64,000 bases of DNA from Escherichia phage OES_C-1, in sequence record PQ553088; one strand, 5' to 3'. The notes below the pieces were generated by a model. It had not been told where the DNA came from and made no database searches. It was given only the letters and a program-made list of their open reading frames with translations. Positions 444-55,603 of the stretch are shown here, one piece after another (position 1 is the stretch's first letter; every line of letters begins with the position of its first letter). Made by a program: the position numbers and the translations under genes.

Positions 444-1901
444 ATGATTGAATTAAAAGATTTACCTTTTGTTGATAGCGTTCCTGATGAAGGTCAGGAA
501 CGTATTTCATGGATTAAAAATGGTGAAGAAATATTAGGAGCTAGTACTAAGTATGGAAATGATGGATCAATGAATAGACCAATTGTTTCCGTGTTTAAAA
601 ACGTCGAGGTTCTTGATGAAAATGTGGGAATTCTTAAAACTGCCATTGAAACATCACAGAAAGATATTAAAACAATTCAAGGAGTTTTAGATGTATCAGG
701 AGATATAGAAGCACTATCGCAGATCAGTGTTAATAAAAATGACATATCGAATTTAAAGACACTTACTAATGAACACACTGACATATTAACTGGAACTAAT
801 AATACAGTTGACAAAATTATTGCTGATATAGGTCCATTTAATGATGAAGAAAACTCTGTTTATAGAACAATTAGAAATGATTTATTGTGGATTAAACAGG
901 AATTAGGACAATATTCTGGCCAAGACATTAACGGTCTTCCTGTTGTTGGTAATGCTAGCACAGGAATGAAACACAGAATAATAACAAATAGTACATTATT
1001 ATCTTCACAAGGCATTCGTTTAAGTGAATTAGAAAATAAATTTACTGAATCTGACGTAGGATCATTAACTGTTGAAGTTGGTAAATTACGTGATGAACTT
1101 GGTAATAAACCAGTAGATTTTGGGCCAAATATTTATAATAGATTAAACACCATAGATGATAAACAAACTTTAATAATTTCTGATATAGCAGAAATTAAAT
1201 CTTCTATTGGATACCCAGAAAATGTTTCTATAATAACAGAAATTAATAATAACAAAAGTAGCATTGAAGCTATTAATAATGAATTAAATCAGAGTGAAGG
1301 TGTTAAACAGCGCTTAACGGCTATTGAAACTTCTATAGGTTCAGATGATATTCCTTCTAGTATTAAAGGAAAAATTAAAAATCACACAACTTCTATTGAG
1401 TCTTTAAACGGAATTGTTGGTGAAAACACTTCGTCTGGTTTAAGAGCGAATGTTTCGTGGTTAAATCAAATTGTTGGAACTGACTCCAGCGGAGGACAAC
1501 CGTCTCCTTCTGGATCTCTATTAAATAAAGTTTCAGTGCTTGAAGGAGAAGTTTCAGTTTTAAACAATAATGTTCAAAATATACAAGTTGAAATAGGAAA
1601 TAATAGAACAGGAATTAAAGGTCAAGTTATTGAACTTACTTCACTTATAAATGGAAATAATCCTGACGGATCAACTGTTGAAGAACGAGGATTAACTAAT
1701 TCTATAAAAACGAATGAAACTAACATTGCGGCAGTCACACATGAAGTAAATACAGCTAAAGACAATATATCCTCTTTACAGAGCAGCGTTCAAGCTCTAC
1801 AAGAAGCAGGTTATATTCCTGAAGCTCCAAAAGATGGCCAAGCTTACGTTCGTAAAGACGGCGAATGGGTACTACTTTCTACCTTTTTATCACCAGCATA
1901 A
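444..1901 (+). CDS. wac: fibritin (whisker/neck fiber)
   Basis: 485 aa; C-terminal foldon [27 protein letters not shown]; coiled-coil body; followed by GC hairpin. Confidence 0.95.
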
Positions 1902-1904
1902 CAT

Positions 1905-1931
1905 GGGGCCGCAAGGCCCCAAAGGATTTTT
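1905..1931 (+). terminator. intrinsic terminator-like hairpin after wac
   Basis: GGGGCC-GCAA-GGCCCC then AAAGGATTTTT. Confidence 0.5.
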
Positions 1932-1933
1932 AA

Positions 1934-3635
<1,702 letters not shown>

Positions 3636-31054: not shown

Positions 31055-31085
31055 TTTGTGTTCCTCATGTTATGTCAGTAAGATT

Positions 31086-31115
31086 ATTATAACACAACAC
31101 GAGTGACTTGTAAAC
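31086..31115 (-). promoter_or_regulatory. early (sigma70-type) promoter GTTTAC-N18-TATAAT
   Basis: Minus strand GTTTAC (31110-31115) and TATAAT (31086-31091); drives the 96-aa ORF. Confidence 0.55.
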
Positions 31116-43966: not shown

Positions 43967-45377
<1,411 letters not shown>

Positions 45378-45381
<4 letters not shown>

Positions 45382-45608
45382 TTATTTTTCTCAACCAATG
45401 ATTGAATATAATCATGCAGGTCTTTAGATGCTTTACCCCACTTATTTTGGTATTCATTTTTAAGATTAGCACGTGATTGAGCTAATAAAACATCATTAGT
45501 TGGAGGTAAAGATTCTAATCGTTGAATCTGGCGTCCATAAATCATTGCAGCCATCTCGGATTCATAAATCAATCCTTTGAGATGTTCAAATTGATGCCAT
45601 GAAATCAT
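45378..45608 (-). CDS. hypothetical protein
   Basis: 76-aa ORF. Confidence 0.5.
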
Positions 45609-45904
45609 TTACATTTATCCTCTTTTAGCTCTTGACGATAATAACATATCATAGTTTTTTGGTCATGTACATATCGTTTTACATCATTAAGCCAAATACG
45701 AAATTCCTGGGAATCTTCAAATGGCATACCGACCCAAGCTTTACCATCAATAACTTTAACTTGCCAAGATAGTTTAGCTTCATCATATGACTTTATTTGT
45801 ACTGGCCAATTAGGATGAACTGTTTCTTTCTTTACTTCTAAAGGCTTTGTCGAACAACCAACTAGAAGACCAATAGATAATATTACTGCTGATAGTTTAA
45901 TCAT
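45605..45904 (-). CDS. o-spanin (outer-membrane lipoprotein, Rz1-like; pseT.2 position)
   Basis: 99 aa; signal peptide with lipobox LLVG-C (MIKLSAVILSIGLLVGCS). Confidence 0.7.
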   Translation of the reverse strand: MIKLSAVILSIGLLVGCSTKPLEVKKETVHPNWPVQIKSYDEAKLSWQVKVIDGKAWVGMPFEDSQEFRIWLNDVKRYVHDQKTMICYYRQELKEDKCK

Positions 45905-46751: not shown

Positions 46752-46779
46752 AAAGTCCTCATGTTATGTCAGTAAGACT

Positions 46780-46809
46780 ACTGTAACACAACACGAGGGA
46801 CTTGTAAAC
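46780..46809 (-). promoter_or_regulatory. early promoter GTTTAC-N18-TACAGT (alc)
   Basis: Minus strand GTTTAC (46804-46809) and TACAGT (46780-46785); ~92% identical to the 31062-31114 cassette. Confidence 0.55.
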
Positions 46810-46812
46810 AGC

Positions 46813-48427: not shown

Positions 48428-49606
48428 TTAAAAATATTTTTTAAAACTCATCATAACTTTATCATCAACATCATTATCAATCTGTGCTACAAGGTAAGAT
48501 GACAGTTCTACTTCTTGTGGCGCGGATTGAACATTATCAGAATTAAGGTATTCACGAATCCAAGGATATGGATGTTTAACCGGAGCATCGGTAATTGGGC
48601 ATGGAAGACCGCACTGTTTCATACGAGATACAGTTAAGTAATCAATAAAGCTCCACATGCTATTTGTATTTAATCCAGGAACATCGCCATCTTTAAATAA
48701 ATGAACTGCCCAGTCTTTTTCTTGACGGTTAACTTCCATGAAAATATCAACTGCTTCTTGTTCACACTCTTGAGCAATTTTAACCCATTCATCGCCATCA
48801 GTACCGGATTGAAGTTGACGAATAATATATTGGGTGCCTTTAAGGTGAAGCTGCTCATCACGTGCAATGAACTTCATAATCTTGGCATTACCTTCCATGA
48901 TTTCCATGTTCTTATGGAAGTTAAAGGTACATGCAAAAGATACATAAAAACGAATAGCTTCTAAGGCATTAATAACGTGCAAACAGAGGTAAAGAGATTT
49001 CATTAGTGCTCGTTTAGCTTCGGCTTCTTGTTTAATAGCTCGATTTAAACGAAAAACAGCATCAGGAGATTCTTTAGCTAGTTCTGTAAATTCTTTAGCA
49101 TTTTCCCATTCACGGGTTTTAGTCAGAACATCATCATAATAGCGACCGATAGATTCAGCACGTTTCATGATAGCTTCATCTAGTACAATCTCATCAAATA
49201 CCTTCGATGGATCAGTATAAAGATTTCGCATGATATGAGTATATGAACGACTGTGAATAGTTTCACTAAAAGTCCATGTAGCAACCCATGTATCAAGACT
49301 TGGGTCTGAAATTAATGACATAAGTACAGCAGATGGCGCACGACCCTGAATGCTATCTAGAAGTGATTGATACTTCAGATTATTAGTAAAAATATCTTGC
49401 TGATATTGAGGAAGCTTGTTAAATTGTGCAGCATCCATCATTAAGTTTACTTCTTCAGGACGCCAGAAAAATGACAACTGCTTTTCGGTTAAATCTTCAA
49501 AAACTTTATGACGTTGAATATCATAACGCGCAATACCAAGACCTGAACCGAAGAACATAGGTTCTTTTAAAACATCAACTGGATTTGTATTAAAAACTGT
49601 GCTCAT
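48428..49606 (-). CDS. nrdB: aerobic ribonucleotide reductase small subunit, uninterrupted
   Basis: 392-aa continuous ORF; both EXXH iron-ligand motifs present; no intron. Confidence 0.9.
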   Translation of the reverse strand: MSTVFNTNPVDVLKEPMFFGSGLGIARYDIQRHKVFEDLTEKQLSFFWRPEEVNLMMDAAQFNKLPQYQQDIFTNNLKYQSLLDSIQGRAPSAVLMSLISDPSLDTWVATWTFSETIHSRSYTHIMRNLYTDPSKVFDEIVLDEAIMKRAESIGRYYDDVLTKTREWENAKEFTELAKESPDAVFRLNRAIKQEAEAKRALMKSLYLCLHVINALEAIRFYVSFACTFNFHKNMEIMEGNAKIMKFIARDEQLHLKGTQYIIRQLQSGTDGDEWVKIAQECEQEAVDIFMEVNRQEKDWAVHLFKDGDVPGLNTNSMWSFIDYLTVSRMKQCGLPCPITDAPVKHPYPWIREYLNSDNVQSAPQEVELSSYLVAQIDNDVDDKVMMSFKKYF

Positions 49607-49657
49607 AAATTTTCCGCTTAGTTAATAGATAGTGACTCGTCCGTGAGTCAAATTATA

Positions 49658-51922
49658 TCATAATTTACAGGATGAACAATCTTCAGCTTTTGGAGTTTCT
49701 ATTTCGTAATCATCAGTACCGGAACCATCACGAGTATTATGATAATAGAAGTTTTTAATGCCATAATACCATCCGTATAGCATGTCATCAATCATTACAG
49801 ACATTGGAACCTTTCCTTTTGGAAAAATCTGCGGGTCATAATATGTATTCGCTGAAGCTGATTGACATACCCATTTCAGCATAATAGCTACCTGCGTAAG
49901 ATAAGGTTTATTGCCTTTCTTAGCTAATTTCCATGTATAATCATAGAGGTCTATGTTATGCTCAATATTGGGCACGACTTGATTAAAGGAACCCTCTTTT
50001 GATTCTTTAACAGAGACTGGTCCACGTGGAGGCTCGATACCGTTTGTACTGTTAGAAACTTGGGAAGATGACTCACATGGCATAAGTGCTGATAATGTGC
50101 TATTACGGATGCCAAAGAGCTTAAGGTCTTCCCGCAGCGACGACCAGTCACAAACGTATTTTGGAGCTGCGATTTGGTCAATCTTTTTATTGTACCAGTC
50201 GATAGGTAATTCGCCTCGAGACCAACGAGTGTCTGAATAATATTCGCAAGGTCCTTTTTCTTTGGCGAGCTTAATGGATGCTTTAATGAGTCCATACTGT
50301 AGTCTCTCAAATAGTTCATGTGTTAAATCGTTAGCATCTTCATAAGAAGCAAAGTTACTTGCCAGCCAAGCTGCATAGTTAGTAACACCTACGCCAAGGT
50401 TTCGACGCTTTTTAGCTTTTTCTGCTTCAGGAACTGGATATCCTTGGTAATCCAAAAGATTATCAAGAGCGCGAACTTGGACTTCTGCCAATTCATTAAT
50501 TTTATCTTGGTCTTGCCAATCGAAGTTATCCAACACAAATGCAGATAACGTACACAATCCAATTTCAGCATCAGGACTATTCACATCATTTGTTGGAATA
50601 GCAATTTCACAGCACAAGTTACTCTGACGAATAGGTGCCTTTTCACGAATAAACGGAGTATAGTTATTCGTATTATCAATGAACTGTACATAAATCCTTG
50701 CTGTTCCTGAGCGTTCAGTCATGAGCAATTCAAATAATTCACGAGCTTTAATACGCTTTTTACGAATATTAGGATCTTTTTCTGCTGCTTCGTATAATTC
50801 ACGGAAACGGTCTTGGTCTTTAAAATAAGAATAATAAAGCTCGCCACCCATTTCATGCGGACTGAACAAAGTAATGTAGTCGTTCTTTCCAAACCGTTCC
50901 ATCATCAAATCATTCAGCTGGACGCCATAATCCATATGACGGATACGGTTTTCTTCTACACCTTTGTTATTTTTCAAAACGAGAAGATTTTCAACTTCCA
51001 AATGCCAAATAGGATAATAAGCAGTAGCAGCGCCGCCACGAATTCCGCCCTGTGAACATGATTTAACAGCAGTCTGAAAATGTTTCCAAAAAGGAATAAC
51101 ACCAGTATGACGCACTTCACCTGTGCCAATCTTAGAACCTTCGGCACGAATCATACCAACGTTAATGCCGATTCCAGCTCGTTTAGAAATATACTCAACA
51201 ATTGAAGCAGAAGCCTTATTGATAGACTTCAGCGAATCACCTGCTTCAATAACAACGCATGAACTAAACTGTCGAGTTGGAGTACGACATCCAGCCATAA
51301 TAGGAGTTGGCAGTGAAATCTGTCGAGTAGATACTGCTTCATAAAAACGAATAACATGTTTTAATCTGTCAACAGGTTCATCTTGATGCAATGCCATTCC
51401 AATAGTCATAAATGCAAACTGTGGAGTTTCATAAATTTGACCAGTGGTTTTATCTTTAACGAGATATTTTTCTTTTAATTGCATCGCTCCGGAATAAGTA
51501 AATTCCATATCCCGCTCATGCTTAATTTTTGATTCTAAAAATGTAATTTCTTCTGCTGAATATTTTGACAACAGTTCAGGGTCGTATTTACCTTCATTTA
51601 CACAGTAAGAAATATGGTCAATAAATGAACGGGGCTCATATTGTCCGTAAACATGCTTACGAAGAGCAAACATTAAACAGCGTGCAGCTACGTATTGATA
51701 ATCAGGCTCTTCAACTGAAATAGAATTTGCAGCAGCCTTAATTACAATGGTTTGAATATCATCAGTGGTCATTCCATCACGGAGATATGATTTAATATTT
51801 TCATATAATTCATAAGGATCTACGGATGTTCCTTCAGCTGCCCAAGATAAAACTTTAATAATTTTTTGCGGGTCAAAGCTCTGAGAAACACCACTACTTT
51901 TGATAACATTAATTAATTGCAT
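49658..51922 (-). CDS. nrdA: aerobic ribonucleotide reductase large subunit
   Basis: 754 aa, T4 length. Confidence 0.95.
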   Translation of the reverse strand: MQLINVIKSSGVSQSFDPQKIIKVLSWAAEGTSVDPYELYENIKSYLRDGMTTDDIQTIVIKAAANSISVEEPDYQYVAARCLMFALRKHVYGQYEPRSFIDHISYCVNEGKYDPELLSKYSAEEITFLESKIKHERDMEFTYSGAMQLKEKYLVKDKTTGQIYETPQFAFMTIGMALHQDEPVDRLKHVIRFYEAVSTRQISLPTPIMAGCRTPTRQFSSCVVIEAGDSLKSINKASASIVEYISKRAGIGINVGMIRAEGSKIGTGEVRHTGVIPFWKHFQTAVKSCSQGGIRGGAATAYYPIWHLEVENLLVLKNNKGVEENRIRHMDYGVQLNDLMMERFGKNDYITLFSPHEMGGELYYSYFKDQDRFRELYEAAEKDPNIRKKRIKARELFELLMTERSGTARIYVQFIDNTNNYTPFIREKAPIRQSNLCCEIAIPTNDVNSPDAEIGLCTLSAFVLDNFDWQDQDKINELAEVQVRALDNLLDYQGYPVPEAEKAKKRRNLGVGVTNYAAWLASNFASYEDANDLTHELFERLQYGLIKASIKLAKEKGPCEYYSDTRWSRGELPIDWYNKKIDQIAAPKYVCDWSSLREDLKLFGIRNSTLSALMPCESSSQVSNSTNGIEPPRGPVSVKESKEGSFNQVVPNIEHNIDLYDYTWKLAKKGNKPYLTQVAIMLKWVCQSASANTYYDPQIFPKGKVPMSVMIDDMLYGWYYGIKNFYYHNTRDGSGTDDYEIETPKAEDCSSCKL

Positions 51923-52239
51923 AAGTCCTCAACTTGAAAATCGTCTTTAAACAATCGGTTAACTATATGAGCTATTATATCACCATGACACGGCTTTGGT
52001 TTACATGTGCATCCTAGCCTCATTCCACGTAAAGGCTCTAAATGTGCTTTAGTTATTTCTCCGGATTTAATTCGACGTATAAAATCTTTTTTGAATAATT
52101 CAATGGCAGCCTCCCGGCTGCCAGCATCTTTACCGACGTAATTTCCCCAAAATGTACCACGGTGAATATTAACATCAAAGTCGGATTTATATTTATTCAC
52201 TACCTGGCATAGACGGCCCGCGCGGTGATAATTCGTCAT
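51913..52239 (-). CDS. hypothetical protein (nrdA.1 position)
   Basis: 108-aa ORF; C-terminal Cys/His cluster [11 protein letters not shown]. Confidence 0.55.
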
Positions 52240-52456
52240 ATTGTTTTTCCGTTAAAACAGTAATATCATAGTAACAATCAGAAGAAGTTTTAACTGTAGA
52301 AATTTTATTATCAAAATACTCACGAGTCATTTTATGAGTATAATATTTTTTGCCATAAATGACAATAGGTTGATTTGGTCCTGGAACTTCTAACTCGCTT
52401 GGGTTAGGAAGTGTAAAAAGAACTACACCAGAAGTATCTTTAAATCGTAAAATCAT
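52193..52456 (-). CDS. hypothetical protein (nrdA.2 position)
   Basis: 87-aa ORF. Confidence 0.5.
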
Positions 52457-52479
52457 ATATCCTCACAATTAATAATTAA

Positions 52480-52791
52480 TTACACCGCCATTTTTCCTTT
52501 AATAGGAGGGTGTGATTCGTAACCTTTAAGAACGAAATCTTTAGGCCTGAGTTTAAGAACATATTCCAATTGTTCTTTAGTAGAAAGATAGCGGAATTTA
52601 TAAGGCAATCCGCCTATTACCAGTTCACAAAGCTCTTTAGGTTCACGACGCAAAATTTCTTTACATTGTTCTACGTGATTCATATAGATATGAGTATTAC
52701 CGCCAGAAAATATCAAATCTCCAGGAATAAGATTACACATCTTAGCTACAATATGAACTAACGCAGCATATGATGCAATATTAAATGGAAG
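52480..52791 (-). CDS. td: thymidylate synthase, exon 2
   Basis: Exon 2 begins LPFNIASY...; joined to exon 1 gives 286 aa. Confidence 0.9.
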   Translation of the reverse strand, partial: LPFNIASYAALVHIVAKMCNLIPGDLIFSGGNTHIYMNHVEQCKEILRREPKELCELVIGGLPYKFRYLSTKEQLEYVLKLRPKDFVLKGYESHPPIKGKMAV

Positions 52792-53807
52792 CATTATGTT
52801 CAGATAAGGTCGTTAATCTTACCCCGGAATTATATCCAGCTGCATGTCACCATGCAGATCAGACTATATCTCCAACTTGTTAAAGCAAGTTGTCTATCGT
52901 TTCGAGTCACTTGACCCTACTCCCCAAAGGGATAGTCGTTAGGCATTTATGTAGAACCAATTCCATTTATCAGATTTTACACGATAAGTAACTAATCCAG
53001 ACGAAATTTTAAAATGTCTAGCTGCATCTGCTGCACAATCAAAAATAACCCCATCACATGAAATCTTTTTAATATTACTAGGCTTTTTACCTTTCATCTT
53101 TTCTGATATTTTAGATTTAGTTATGTCTGAATGCTTATGATTAAAGAATGAATTATTTTCACCTGAACGATTTCTGCATTTACTACAAGTATAAGCAGAA
53201 GTTTGTATGCGAACACCGCACTTACAAAACTTATGGGTTTCTGGATTCCAACGCCCGTTTTTACTTCCGGGTTTACTGTAAAGAGCTTTCCGACCATCAG
53301 GTCCAAGTTTAAGCATCTTAGCTTTAACAGTTTCAGAACGTTTCTTAATAATTTCTTCTTTTAATGGATGCGTAGAACATGTATCACCAAACGTTGCATC
53401 AGCAATATTGTATCCATTAATTTTAGAATTAAGCTCTTTAATCCAAAAATTTTCTCGTTCAATAATCAAATCTTTCTCATATGGAATTTCTTCCAAAATA
53501 GAACATTCAAACACATTACCATGTTTGTTAAAAGACCTCTGAAGCTTTATAGAAGAATGGCATCCTTTTTCTAAATCTTTAAAATGCCTCTTCCATCTCT
53601 TTTCAAAATCTTTAGCACTTCCTACATATACTTTATTGTTTAAAGTATTTTTAATCTGATAAATTCCGCTTTTCATAAATACCTCTTTAAATATAGAAGT
53701 ATTTATTAAAGGGCAGTCCTACAATTTAGCACGGGATTGTCTACTAGAGAGGTTCCCCGTTTAGATAGATTACAAGTATAAGTCACCTTATACTCAGGCC
53801 TCAATTA
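52792..53807 (-). mobile_element. group I self-splicing intron in td (1016 nt) carrying the I-TevI ORF
   Basis: Intron 5' end UAAUUGAGGCCUGAGUAUAAGGUGACUUAUACUUG... recognised; exon 1 ends ...UUGGGU; length 1016 nt. Confidence 0.9.
52939..53676 (-). CDS. intron-encoded GIY-YIG homing endonuclease I-TevI
   Basis: 245 aa; N-terminal GIYQIKN...YVGSA GIY-YIG module and C-terminal DNA-binding region. Confidence 0.9.
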   Translation of the reverse strand: MKSGIYQIKNTLNNKVYVGSAKDFEKRWKRHFKDLEKGCHSSIKLQRSFNKHGNVFECSILEEIPYEKDLIIERENFWIKELNSKINGYNIADATFGDTCSTHPLKEEIIKKRSETVKAKMLKLGPDGRKALYSKPGSKNGRWNPETHKFCKCGVRIQTSAYTCSKCRNRSGENNSFFNHKHSDITKSKISEKMKGKKPSNIKKISCDGVIFDCAADAARHFKISSGLVTYRVKSDKWNWFYINA

Positions 53808-54356
53808 ACCCAAGAAAACATCTACTGATCGTTGATACCACTGCAAATCCAAATAGCCATTACGCACATTAAACTGATAGAACATATGACAAGGTGGTAA
53901 TGCCATTTGCTTGAGTTCAGCTGGATTCCATGCTGAAACAACTTGACGTCTATCATTTGGCTGTTTTTTAATACGATCAATAACTTCTACAATTTGGTCT
54001 ACACCGCCAAAATCACGCCATTGTTTTCCATAAATTGGACCAAGTTCACCACTATGATATCCTAAATCTTTTGCTTGATTTTCGTAATTTTCATCCCAGA
54101 CTGTTTTGCCTTGAATTAATGAATCGTGTTGAATTAATCGTAAATCATTGACATTTGTGCTTCCTGATAAAAACCAAAGTAGCTCAGCAATGCAAGCTTT
54201 CCAGGCGAGCTTCTTAGTTGTTACTGCAGGAAAACCTTTACTTAAATCCCAGCGTAATTTAGTACCGAACAAAGCAATTGTTCCTGTGCCTGTTCGGTCA
54301 TCAGTTTCATAGCCATTTTCAAAAATGTCTTTAATTAAATCTTGGTATTGTTTCAT
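53808..54356 (-). CDS. td: thymidylate synthase, exon 1
   Basis: 183 codons ending ...QRSVDVFLG; active-site PCH motif (LPPCHMFYQFNV). Confidence 0.9.
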
Positions 54357-54401
54357 TTAGTACCTTATATAAATTATAATACATTTTATGAAGCTAAATA
54401 A

Positions 54402-54761
54402 TCAATACGGTTTAGCGTCAAATTTTCTTTCAATTTCAGGCGTGAAATATAATTCTTTACCACGTTTGGAAAAGCGACCAATAATATGATAATTATTCTC
54501 ATCAAACGTGATATTGCCAATATCCATAGCTTTCAACCAAATATCGATATTTCTGTCAAGCTTTATATCAAAATTCCAATACGGAGAACTATTACCGAAA
54601 ATACTGCAAGCGGATTCAGTGAAACAACTACTATAAATCTTGTCTTTAGGAACTACTAATTGATAGACGCCTTTAATAAACTGAGGACCTTTCCATTTTG
54701 GCTGTTTCGCGTCTTTTTCTAATAGAATAGGGTAATAATTAAAGCTCATATTTTCCGCCAC
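54402..54761 (-). CDS. hypothetical protein inserted between frd and td
   Basis: 119-aa ORF from GTG 54761 (115 aa from ATG 54749); no recognisable motif. Confidence 0.5.
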   Translation of the reverse strand: MAENMSFNYYPILLEKDAKQPKWKGPQFIKGVYQLVVPKDKIYSSCFTESACSIFGNSSPYWNFDIKLDRNIDIWLKAMDIGNITFDENNYHIIGRFSKRGKELYFTPEIERKFDAKPY

Positions 54762-54769
54762 GTGTTATT

Positions 54770-55360
<591 letters not shown>

Positions 55361-55603
55361 TCAAACAGACTTTTTCACAATTTTCCAATCAGCTTTAAAC
55401 TGTTCAACGTCAGAATGATAAATCCAGAATCCTGCGCTTTCTCCATCCTCATAAAGAGGGCATCCATCGCATTCATCTTCCCATCCCATATCACGTAAAA
55501 GATGTTCAGCTTTTTCAACAAGTTCAGAATCTTTACCGATGATATTAAAATACCATTTACCTTTAACTTCTGAATCTTTGATGCTTTGGCGTTGTAATCT
55601 CAT
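55361..55603 (-). CDS. hypothetical protein (frd.1 position)
   Basis: 80-aa ORF; early promoter-like motif upstream. Confidence 0.5.
   Translation of the reverse strand: MRLQRQSIKDSEVKGKWYFNIIGKDSELVEKAEHLLRDMGWEDECDGCPLYEDGESAGFWIYHSDVEQFKADWKIVKKSV

Follow-up and report, generated by a model that had tools for sequence, protein, structure and literature searches.

The stretch of DNA analysed here (the window, 64,000 nt) shares 24 kb at 100% identity with Escherichia phage OES_C-2 (PQ642263.1, genus Tequatrovirus), in whose record each position equals the window coordinate plus 92017. On the minus strand, the genes frd, td, nrdA.2, nrdA.1, nrdA, nrdB and denA follow one another in the same order as in T4. 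In this array td, the gene for thymidylate synthase, is divided into two exons by an intervening sequence that carries an open reading frame for the homing endonuclease I-TevI (Table 1). The td intron with I-TevI is the founding model both for group I introns in bacteria and for the homing of introns. The intron begins with UAAUUGAGGCCUGAGUAUAAGG and ends with ...AACAUAAUG, and the frame of exon 1 stops at a TAA (53807..53805) that consists of intron bases 1–3. An earlier, sequence-only reading of this DNA had proposed the split, the boundaries of both exons, the length of 1016 nt and the stop in the first intron codon; all coordinates proved exact. The predicted spliced junction reads ...UUCUUGGGU|CUUCCAUUU..., i.e. 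GGU|CUU. In PQ642263.1 both td exons and I-TevI are annotated as hypothetical proteins, and many related GenBank records give td as two separate CDS (td-A/td-B, or thymidylate synthase twice).

Joining the exons yields a thymidylate synthase of 286 aa with the junction ...DVFLG|LPFNIASYA.... As the sequence-only reading had supposed, the thymidylate synthase frame is restored: the joined product matches Pfam PF00303 end to end (1–266/266, E 3.8e-97, 325 bits with the cut-off at 24.3) and aligns with the structure of T4 thymidylate synthase, 1TIS_A, without a gap across the junction (1–286 on 1–286, E 7e-194, 13 substitutions). The paired CDS in many records could be taken to mean that td is truly split and makes two separate polypeptides with no RNA splicing, and ORF finders indeed call for exon 2 an ORF of 104 aa (52794..52480) with an ATG start. 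However, this ATG is made of the final three bases of the intron (52794–52792), which is why so many GenBank records contain two thymidylate synthase genes. Moreover, the two pieces, once joined, cover a single Pfam domain and a single crystal-structure chain without a gap, a complete and covarying group I ribozyme lies between them (see below), and the RefSeq records of T4 and RB3 both annotate td as a joined CDS. We give the two-polypeptide alternative practically no chance of being right. With td read as a single spliced gene, PQ642263.1 is correctly annotated by joining the exons into one td CDS, with I-TevI nested inside.

Table 1. Features of the td locus and its intron, in window coordinates; paired strands are given 5' strand / 3' strand.
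Feature	Coordinates	Strand	Description
td exon 1	53808..54356	-	549 nt, 183 codons; 3' end ...UUC UUG GGU; from the ORF list and translation
td intron, group I (IA-type)	52792..53807	-	1016 nt; first base U1 of UAAUUGAGG, last base the terminal G (52792) of ...AUAAUG
td exon 2	52480..52791	-	312 nt including stop; 5' end CUU CCA UUU = LPF
I-TevI homing endonuclease ORF	52939..53676	-	245 aa, 738 nt; looped out of P6a
I-TevI cleavage motif CAACG (CNNNG)	53830..53834	-	exon 1, positions -27 to -23 relative to the insertion site
T4 late-promoter-like box	53700..53707	-	AATAAATA (= AAUAAAUA); intron 101–108, 5' of I-TevI
Predicted hairpin over I-TevI ribosome site	53669..53711	-	pairs GAGG (53685–53682) and AUG with the promoter region
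5' half of ribozyme core	53716..53799	-	P1 guide strand to P6a 5' strand; complementarity
3' half of ribozyme core	52803..52957	-	P6a 3' strand to P9.2; covariation and RF00028 alignment
P1	guide strand 53799–53794	-	UUGGGU (exon -6..-1) / GCCUGA (intron 9–14); U-1.G9 wobble
P2	53793–53776	-	GUAUAAG / CUUAUAC
P3	53769–53764 with 52898–52893	-	UCUAUC / GAUAGA
P4	P4/P5 53760–53731	-	ACGGGG / UCCCGU
P5	P4/P5 53760–53731	-	UCU / AGA
P6	53730–53729 with 52944–52943	-	GC / GC
P6a	53723–53716 with 52957–52950	-	UGUAGGAC / GUUCUACA
P7	52937–52933 with 52866–52862	-	GACUA / UAGUC
P7.1		-	UCCC / GGGA
P7.2		-	GGGUC / GACUC
P8		-	AACUUG / CAAGUU
P9		-	CUGCAUG / CAUGCAG
P9.1		-	GGA / UCC
P9.2		-	GGUAAG / CUUAUC

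The group IA core that the sequence-only reading had predicted for the intervening sequence is complete: all helices from P1 to P9.2 are present, those of the 3' half being 94.5% paired among relatives and P3–P6a complementary. The hallmark of IA introns in the Michel-Westhof classification is the presence of P7.1 and P7.2 between P7 and the 3' strand of P3, and both helices are found there in the td intron. The ribozyme and the endonuclease gene overlap, in that P6a and P6 have their 3' strands inside the last I-TevI codons and the stop codon (UGG UUC UAC AUA AAU GCC UAA). In T4, the 3' end of I-TevI likewise supplies the 3' strands of these two helices (PMC2988022).

The search with the Rfam model RF00028 that the sequence-only reading had suggested gave a divided answer. 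At the Rfam gathering threshold (50 bits) there was no match in the whole window. In E-value mode the model aligned to 53070..52840 with 42.5 bits (E 5.4e-9 in a 2-kb region), covering the 3' half only. This match (E 1.7e-7) is the sole one to any Rfam RNA family in the 64 kb at E<0.01, and no further group I introns were found in the window at that level. The score stays below 50 bits because the 738-nt I-TevI ORF in P6a splits the core; the td intron of Klebsiella phage EI, which naturally lacks the ORF, reaches 63.8 bits against the threshold of 50. Thus, threshold-level Rfam scans miss the td intron, and genome scans will likewise undercount group I introns that contain ORFs.

Comparative evidence for the helices comes from relatives gathered by similarity to the 3' core, namely, the td introns of T4, EI and Salmonella phage CGG4-1, the nrdB intron of T4, the nrdD intron of a Felix-O1-like phage, DNA polymerase introns of Yersinia phage Berlin and of an Acinetobacter phage, one Pectobacterium phage intron and two introns from a phiKZ-like phage. 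In the 11-intron alignment, P7, P7.1, P7.2, P8, P9, P9.1 and P9.2 are paired in 94.5% of cases, versus 31–42% (maximum 41.6%) in controls in which the partner was slid by 1–3 columns. Both sides have changed in 20 of the 36 pairs of the 3' half, and none of 500 shuffles reached the observed value. P7.2 is paired in 100% of the 11 introns, double changes included. For the 5' half, a MAFFT alignment of ORF-deleted full cores was left out of the pair counts, as it shifted the distant 5' halves by one column and scrambled P6–P7 of one phiKZ-like intron; P3–P6a were checked in each sequence instead. Examined singly, P3, P4, P5, P6 and P6a have complementary strands in the correct order in 10/10 introns, and P3 and P4 covary throughout, with two to five pair types per position. 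P1 of phage EI carries changes in both strands with the pairing kept. Unconstrained folding of the ORF-deleted RNA recovered P2–P6a, P7.1, P7.2, P8, P9 and P9.1 (z = -3.97); P1, P7 and P9.2 are absent from this minimum-energy fold, and the program cannot draw P7 crossing P3.

Among the closest known counterparts is the td intron of T4 (NC_000866, td 143235..145112), which shares the gene, the insertion site (GGU|CUN), the overall organization, the P1–P9.2 helix set, the late-promoter box and the hairpin. Alignment of the two introns, also proposed by the sequence-only reading, gave 3 differences in 1016 nt at the same insertion site, VFLG|LPFN. These are one extra T in the RefSeq copy of T4 at intron 92/93, which makes the latter 1017 nt long, one synonymous base in I-TevI and one base in the variable P7–P9 linker. 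None of the three falls in a helix, the change in the length of the T-run lying just past P6a. By contrast, the td exons differ from those of T4 at 54/861 positions (6.3%; exon 1 is 94.9% and exon 2 91.7% identical). In RB3 (NC_025419) the intron is 1016 nt long with a single difference, its last 169 bases being identical, and the exons differ at 45/861 positions. Phage KMB39 also has a td intron of 1016 nt, with 5 differences in the intron and 26/861 in the exons. The element is thus already known, as had been recognized from the sequence alone, ordinary for T4-like phages, and nearly identical to the copies of T4 and RB3: it sits at the td site of T4, differs from that intron at 3 positions and encodes an identical I-TevI protein.

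A different reading of the same locus is that the intron is a decayed relic that no longer splices, so that td is broken and the phage relies on the host ThyA. The RF00028 score below gathering in the window and the additional base of the RefSeq T4 intron at 92/93 could be cited for it. Yet, only 3 differences separate the intron from that of T4, which splices experimentally, and none of them is in a core helix; the introns of RB3 and KMB39 are 1016 nt long as well, and both exons retain a full-length conserved thymidylate synthase frame. A decayed relic is therefore highly improbable, and guanosine-dependent self-splicing, established for the T4 td intron (PMC2988022), can be expected of its near-identical counterpart in the window.

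More distant relatives retain the same core with other contents. The td intron of Klebsiella phage EI (MN106245) occupies the same site and is only 312 nt long, the I-TevI ORF being deleted except for the start region and the final bases (L003, 1857..2168); its 3' core is ~96% identical to that of the window, P1 and P8 show compensatory changes, and a G.U pair of P9.2 has become A-U. In Escherichia phages N2, MLP2, Shinka and BYEP01 the td pieces span 861 nt plus ~254–320 nt, which suggests short introns like that of EI. Salmonella phage CGG4-1 (Gelderlandvirus) has an intron with an I-TevI homologue at the same td site; its 5' core is 93% and its 3' core 84% identical, whereas the exons are only 67–72% and the ORF 75% identical, and double compensatory changes are found in P7.2, P8 and P9.2. 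The T4 nrdB intron, which encodes I-TevIII, has the same helix set, with covariation in P3, P4, P6a, P7.1, P8 and P9.2. Both this intron and the nrdD intron of T4 (I-TevII) also reside in nucleotide-synthesis genes, although the genes and endonucleases are different. Two td-like IA-core introns, ~250–600 nt apart, were observed in the phiKZ-like Pseudomonas phage PhiPizzaParty (L007, ~1380..1650 and ~1900..2250), in a region of the record where only short hypothetical proteins are annotated, on both strands.

The endonuclease claimed by the sequence-only reading, an intact GIY-YIG protein of 245 aa, is borne out by a whole ORF (53676..52939) and by its Pfam matches: PF01541 (E 2e-18), PF22635 (E 1e-20) and PF20987 (E 3e-32), corresponding to the GIY-YIG, I-TevI zinc-finger and I-TevI DNA-binding domains, respectively. 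The protein equals T4 NP_049849 at 245/245 residues, and PDB structures match residues 1–97 (1MK0/1LN0) and 130–245 (1I3J). Upstream of the ORF, the late-promoter-like box lies inside a stretch that resembles the reconstructed I-TevI homing site with 14/20 identity in an ungapped count; the published identity of the operator to the homing site is 15/20, and the operator and promoter functions of the T4 box region have been described (PMC2988022). Intron bases 85–140 fold with a minimum free energy of -13.0 kcal/mol into the hairpin over the ribosome site, whereas RNA beginning just 3' of the late-promoter box is predicted to be unstructured. In T4, such a hairpin restricts I-TevI translation to late transcripts, with autorepression in addition (PMC2988022), and the box and hairpin of the window match this scheme, so that a similar control may operate here. 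A sigma-70 promoter scan of 52000–55600, uninformative on T4 middle and late promoters, found no enrichment (18 sites versus 14.6 +/- 4.3 in shuffles). The sole terminator-like site in the same interval was rejected, being the complement of P8. In exon 1, the CAACG motif is positioned as expected from the cleavage distance of I-TevI, 23/25 nt upstream of the insertion site (PMC2988022), and the empty site of the intronless phage Killian likewise has CAACG at -27..-23. The allele that contains the intron should be immune to I-TevI, its binding site being split by the insertion.

The divergence of the intron and that of its exons do not agree. Closest to the window in the exons is the td of Killian, which is intronless: 19/861 positions differ, with only 3 differences in exon 2. 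The empty site of this type is found at >=99% identity in 23 records, and that of Shigella phage SH-2 equals the one in Killian at 80/80 positions; td is contiguous in 400 of the 607 collection records. At the rate at which the exons differ from T4, ~64 differences would be expected in the intron, for a binomial P(<=3) of 1e-24. Vertical inheritance from an ancestor shared with T4 could be reconciled with near-identity if purifying selection on the intron were strong, and ribozyme cores are indeed constrained, with the 5' and 3' core segments conserved anyway. However, the third codon positions of I-TevI, which should be nearly free to change, differ from T4 at 1/246 sites, versus 38/287 in the td exons. 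Furthermore, the closest relatives by exons (Killian and the 23 records at >=99% identity to its empty site) lack the intron, and the same pattern was published as evidence of recent intron transfer in T-even phages by Sandegren and Sjoberg (2004), as cited in PMC2993671. We consider vertical inheritance improbable. The intron goes back to a far more recent common ancestor with its RB3 and T4 counterparts than does the td gene around it. It looks horizontally acquired by homing, since the exons differ from those of T4 at 6.3% of positions and come nearest to those of intronless Killian, while the intron itself is near-identical.

The course of such an acquisition is less clear. At positions -6 and -4 of exon 1 the window has T and G, compatible with P1, as in all intron-containing alleles compared, versus C and C in Killian. 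At +3 of exon 2 it has the T (U) of the Killian type, where T4 has A. Somewhat less than even weight can be given to a scenario in which an intron like that of RB3 (1/1016 difference) entered a Killian-like intronless td in a single homing event whose conversion tract was very asymmetric. The bases around the site suggest a tract limited to the side of the cleavage site, with at most 2 nt converted downstream because +3 is already of the recipient type. The bases at -6 and -4 were rejected as proof of co-conversion, given that some intronless alleles have P1-type bases too. In intronless T2, which we take to have a T4-type junction, 2/80 positions differ from the Killian-type empty site. A conversion tract relative to T4 was also rejected: the 87 nt upstream of the intron hold 1 difference versus ~4.4 expected (Poisson P ~0.07, not significant), and they encode the conserved active site. 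A possible third pair of P10 was observed between intron nt 6 (53802) and exon 2 +3 (52789); it is G.U in the window and U-A in EI and CGG4-1, and in T4 and RB3 the two bases are a mismatched G and A. With its recipient-type U at +3, the window allele would thus gain a G6.U+3 pair in P10.

The other two intron sites of T4 are empty. nrdB is a single uninterrupted ORF of 392 aa (48428..49606), and its alignment with T4 skips exactly the 598-nt intron. The sequence-only reading was therefore right that the nrdB intron is absent; that this is notable did not hold up, absence being the usual state in T-even phages. RB3, which differs here from the window genome, carries the nrdB intron with an intact I-TevIII in addition to that of td, T6 and LZ2 each have one intron-encoded endonuclease, and most T-even relatives have none (PMC2993671, Table 5). 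Of the records in the phage collection, ~195–226 contain the td intron and <=118 the nrdB intron at >=80% coverage. In the OES_C-2 genome outside the window nrdD is uninterrupted (605 aa) and mobC is absent. With nrdB and nrdD both contiguous, td therefore holds the only intron of the genome among the three T4 sites.

Several further features of the genome were observed. mobE and nrdB.1 are missing, leaving a gap of only 55 bp between nrdB and nrdA (window 48428..49661), and in its 5' part (48933..49606) nrdB shows indels and only 86% identity to T4, compared to ~96% in the neighbouring genes. An ORF of 273 aa that is absent in T4 lies between nrdD and gene 49 (OES_C-2 record 44916..45737; L011, 6917..7738), with matches to homing-endonuclease families of phages (phrog_7504, E 8e-34). 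frd and td are separated by ~408 bp (54360..54767) containing an ORF of 119 aa (54402..54761, phrog_1928) with no Pfam match. ORFs of ~115 aa are annotated at this place in RB3, Killian and KMB39, whereas frd and td overlap in T4, which is the odd one out. Another ORF, of 106 aa (45061..45381, phrog_2364), is situated between pseT and pseT.1 and has no counterpart in T4. Finally, two near-identical intergenic copies of ~55 nt (31062..31115 and 46752..46812), one of which is in the alc-rnlA gap as in T4, resemble on the gene strand a T4 early promoter and leader (GTTTAC...TATAGT/TACAGT...ATGAGG).

Taken as a whole, the element is almost certainly a mobile td group I intron of the T4 type, in which a self-splicing ribozyme is combined with the gene of a homing endonuclease. 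The model that follows draws on the anatomy of the locus, its reading frames, the helices with their covariation and the identity with the T4 and RB3 copies, all observed here, and on experiments on T4, from which splicing, timing of expression, autorepression and homing are extrapolated. Transcription of frd-td-nrdA would pass through the intron, and on unspliced RNA the translation of exon 1 would halt at the UAA. Once the intron has folded into its group IA core, free guanosine would attack after U-1, held in a wobble pair with G9 of P1. The freed end of exon 1 would then attack after the terminal G at 52792, joining GGU to CUU and restoring the message for thymidylate synthase. In early read-through RNA the ribosome site of I-TevI would be hidden by the hairpin, whereas late transcripts would begin within its 5' arm and leave the site free; the I-TevI protein may also bind the operator over its own late promoter. 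During mixed infection with an intronless phage, I-TevI would bind the exon junction and cut 23/25 nt upstream, at CAAC|G, and double-strand-break repair would copy the intron into the cut td. The mismatch between intron and exon divergence at this locus would represent one more natural case of the recent horizontal spread of such introns among T-even phages that has been published.
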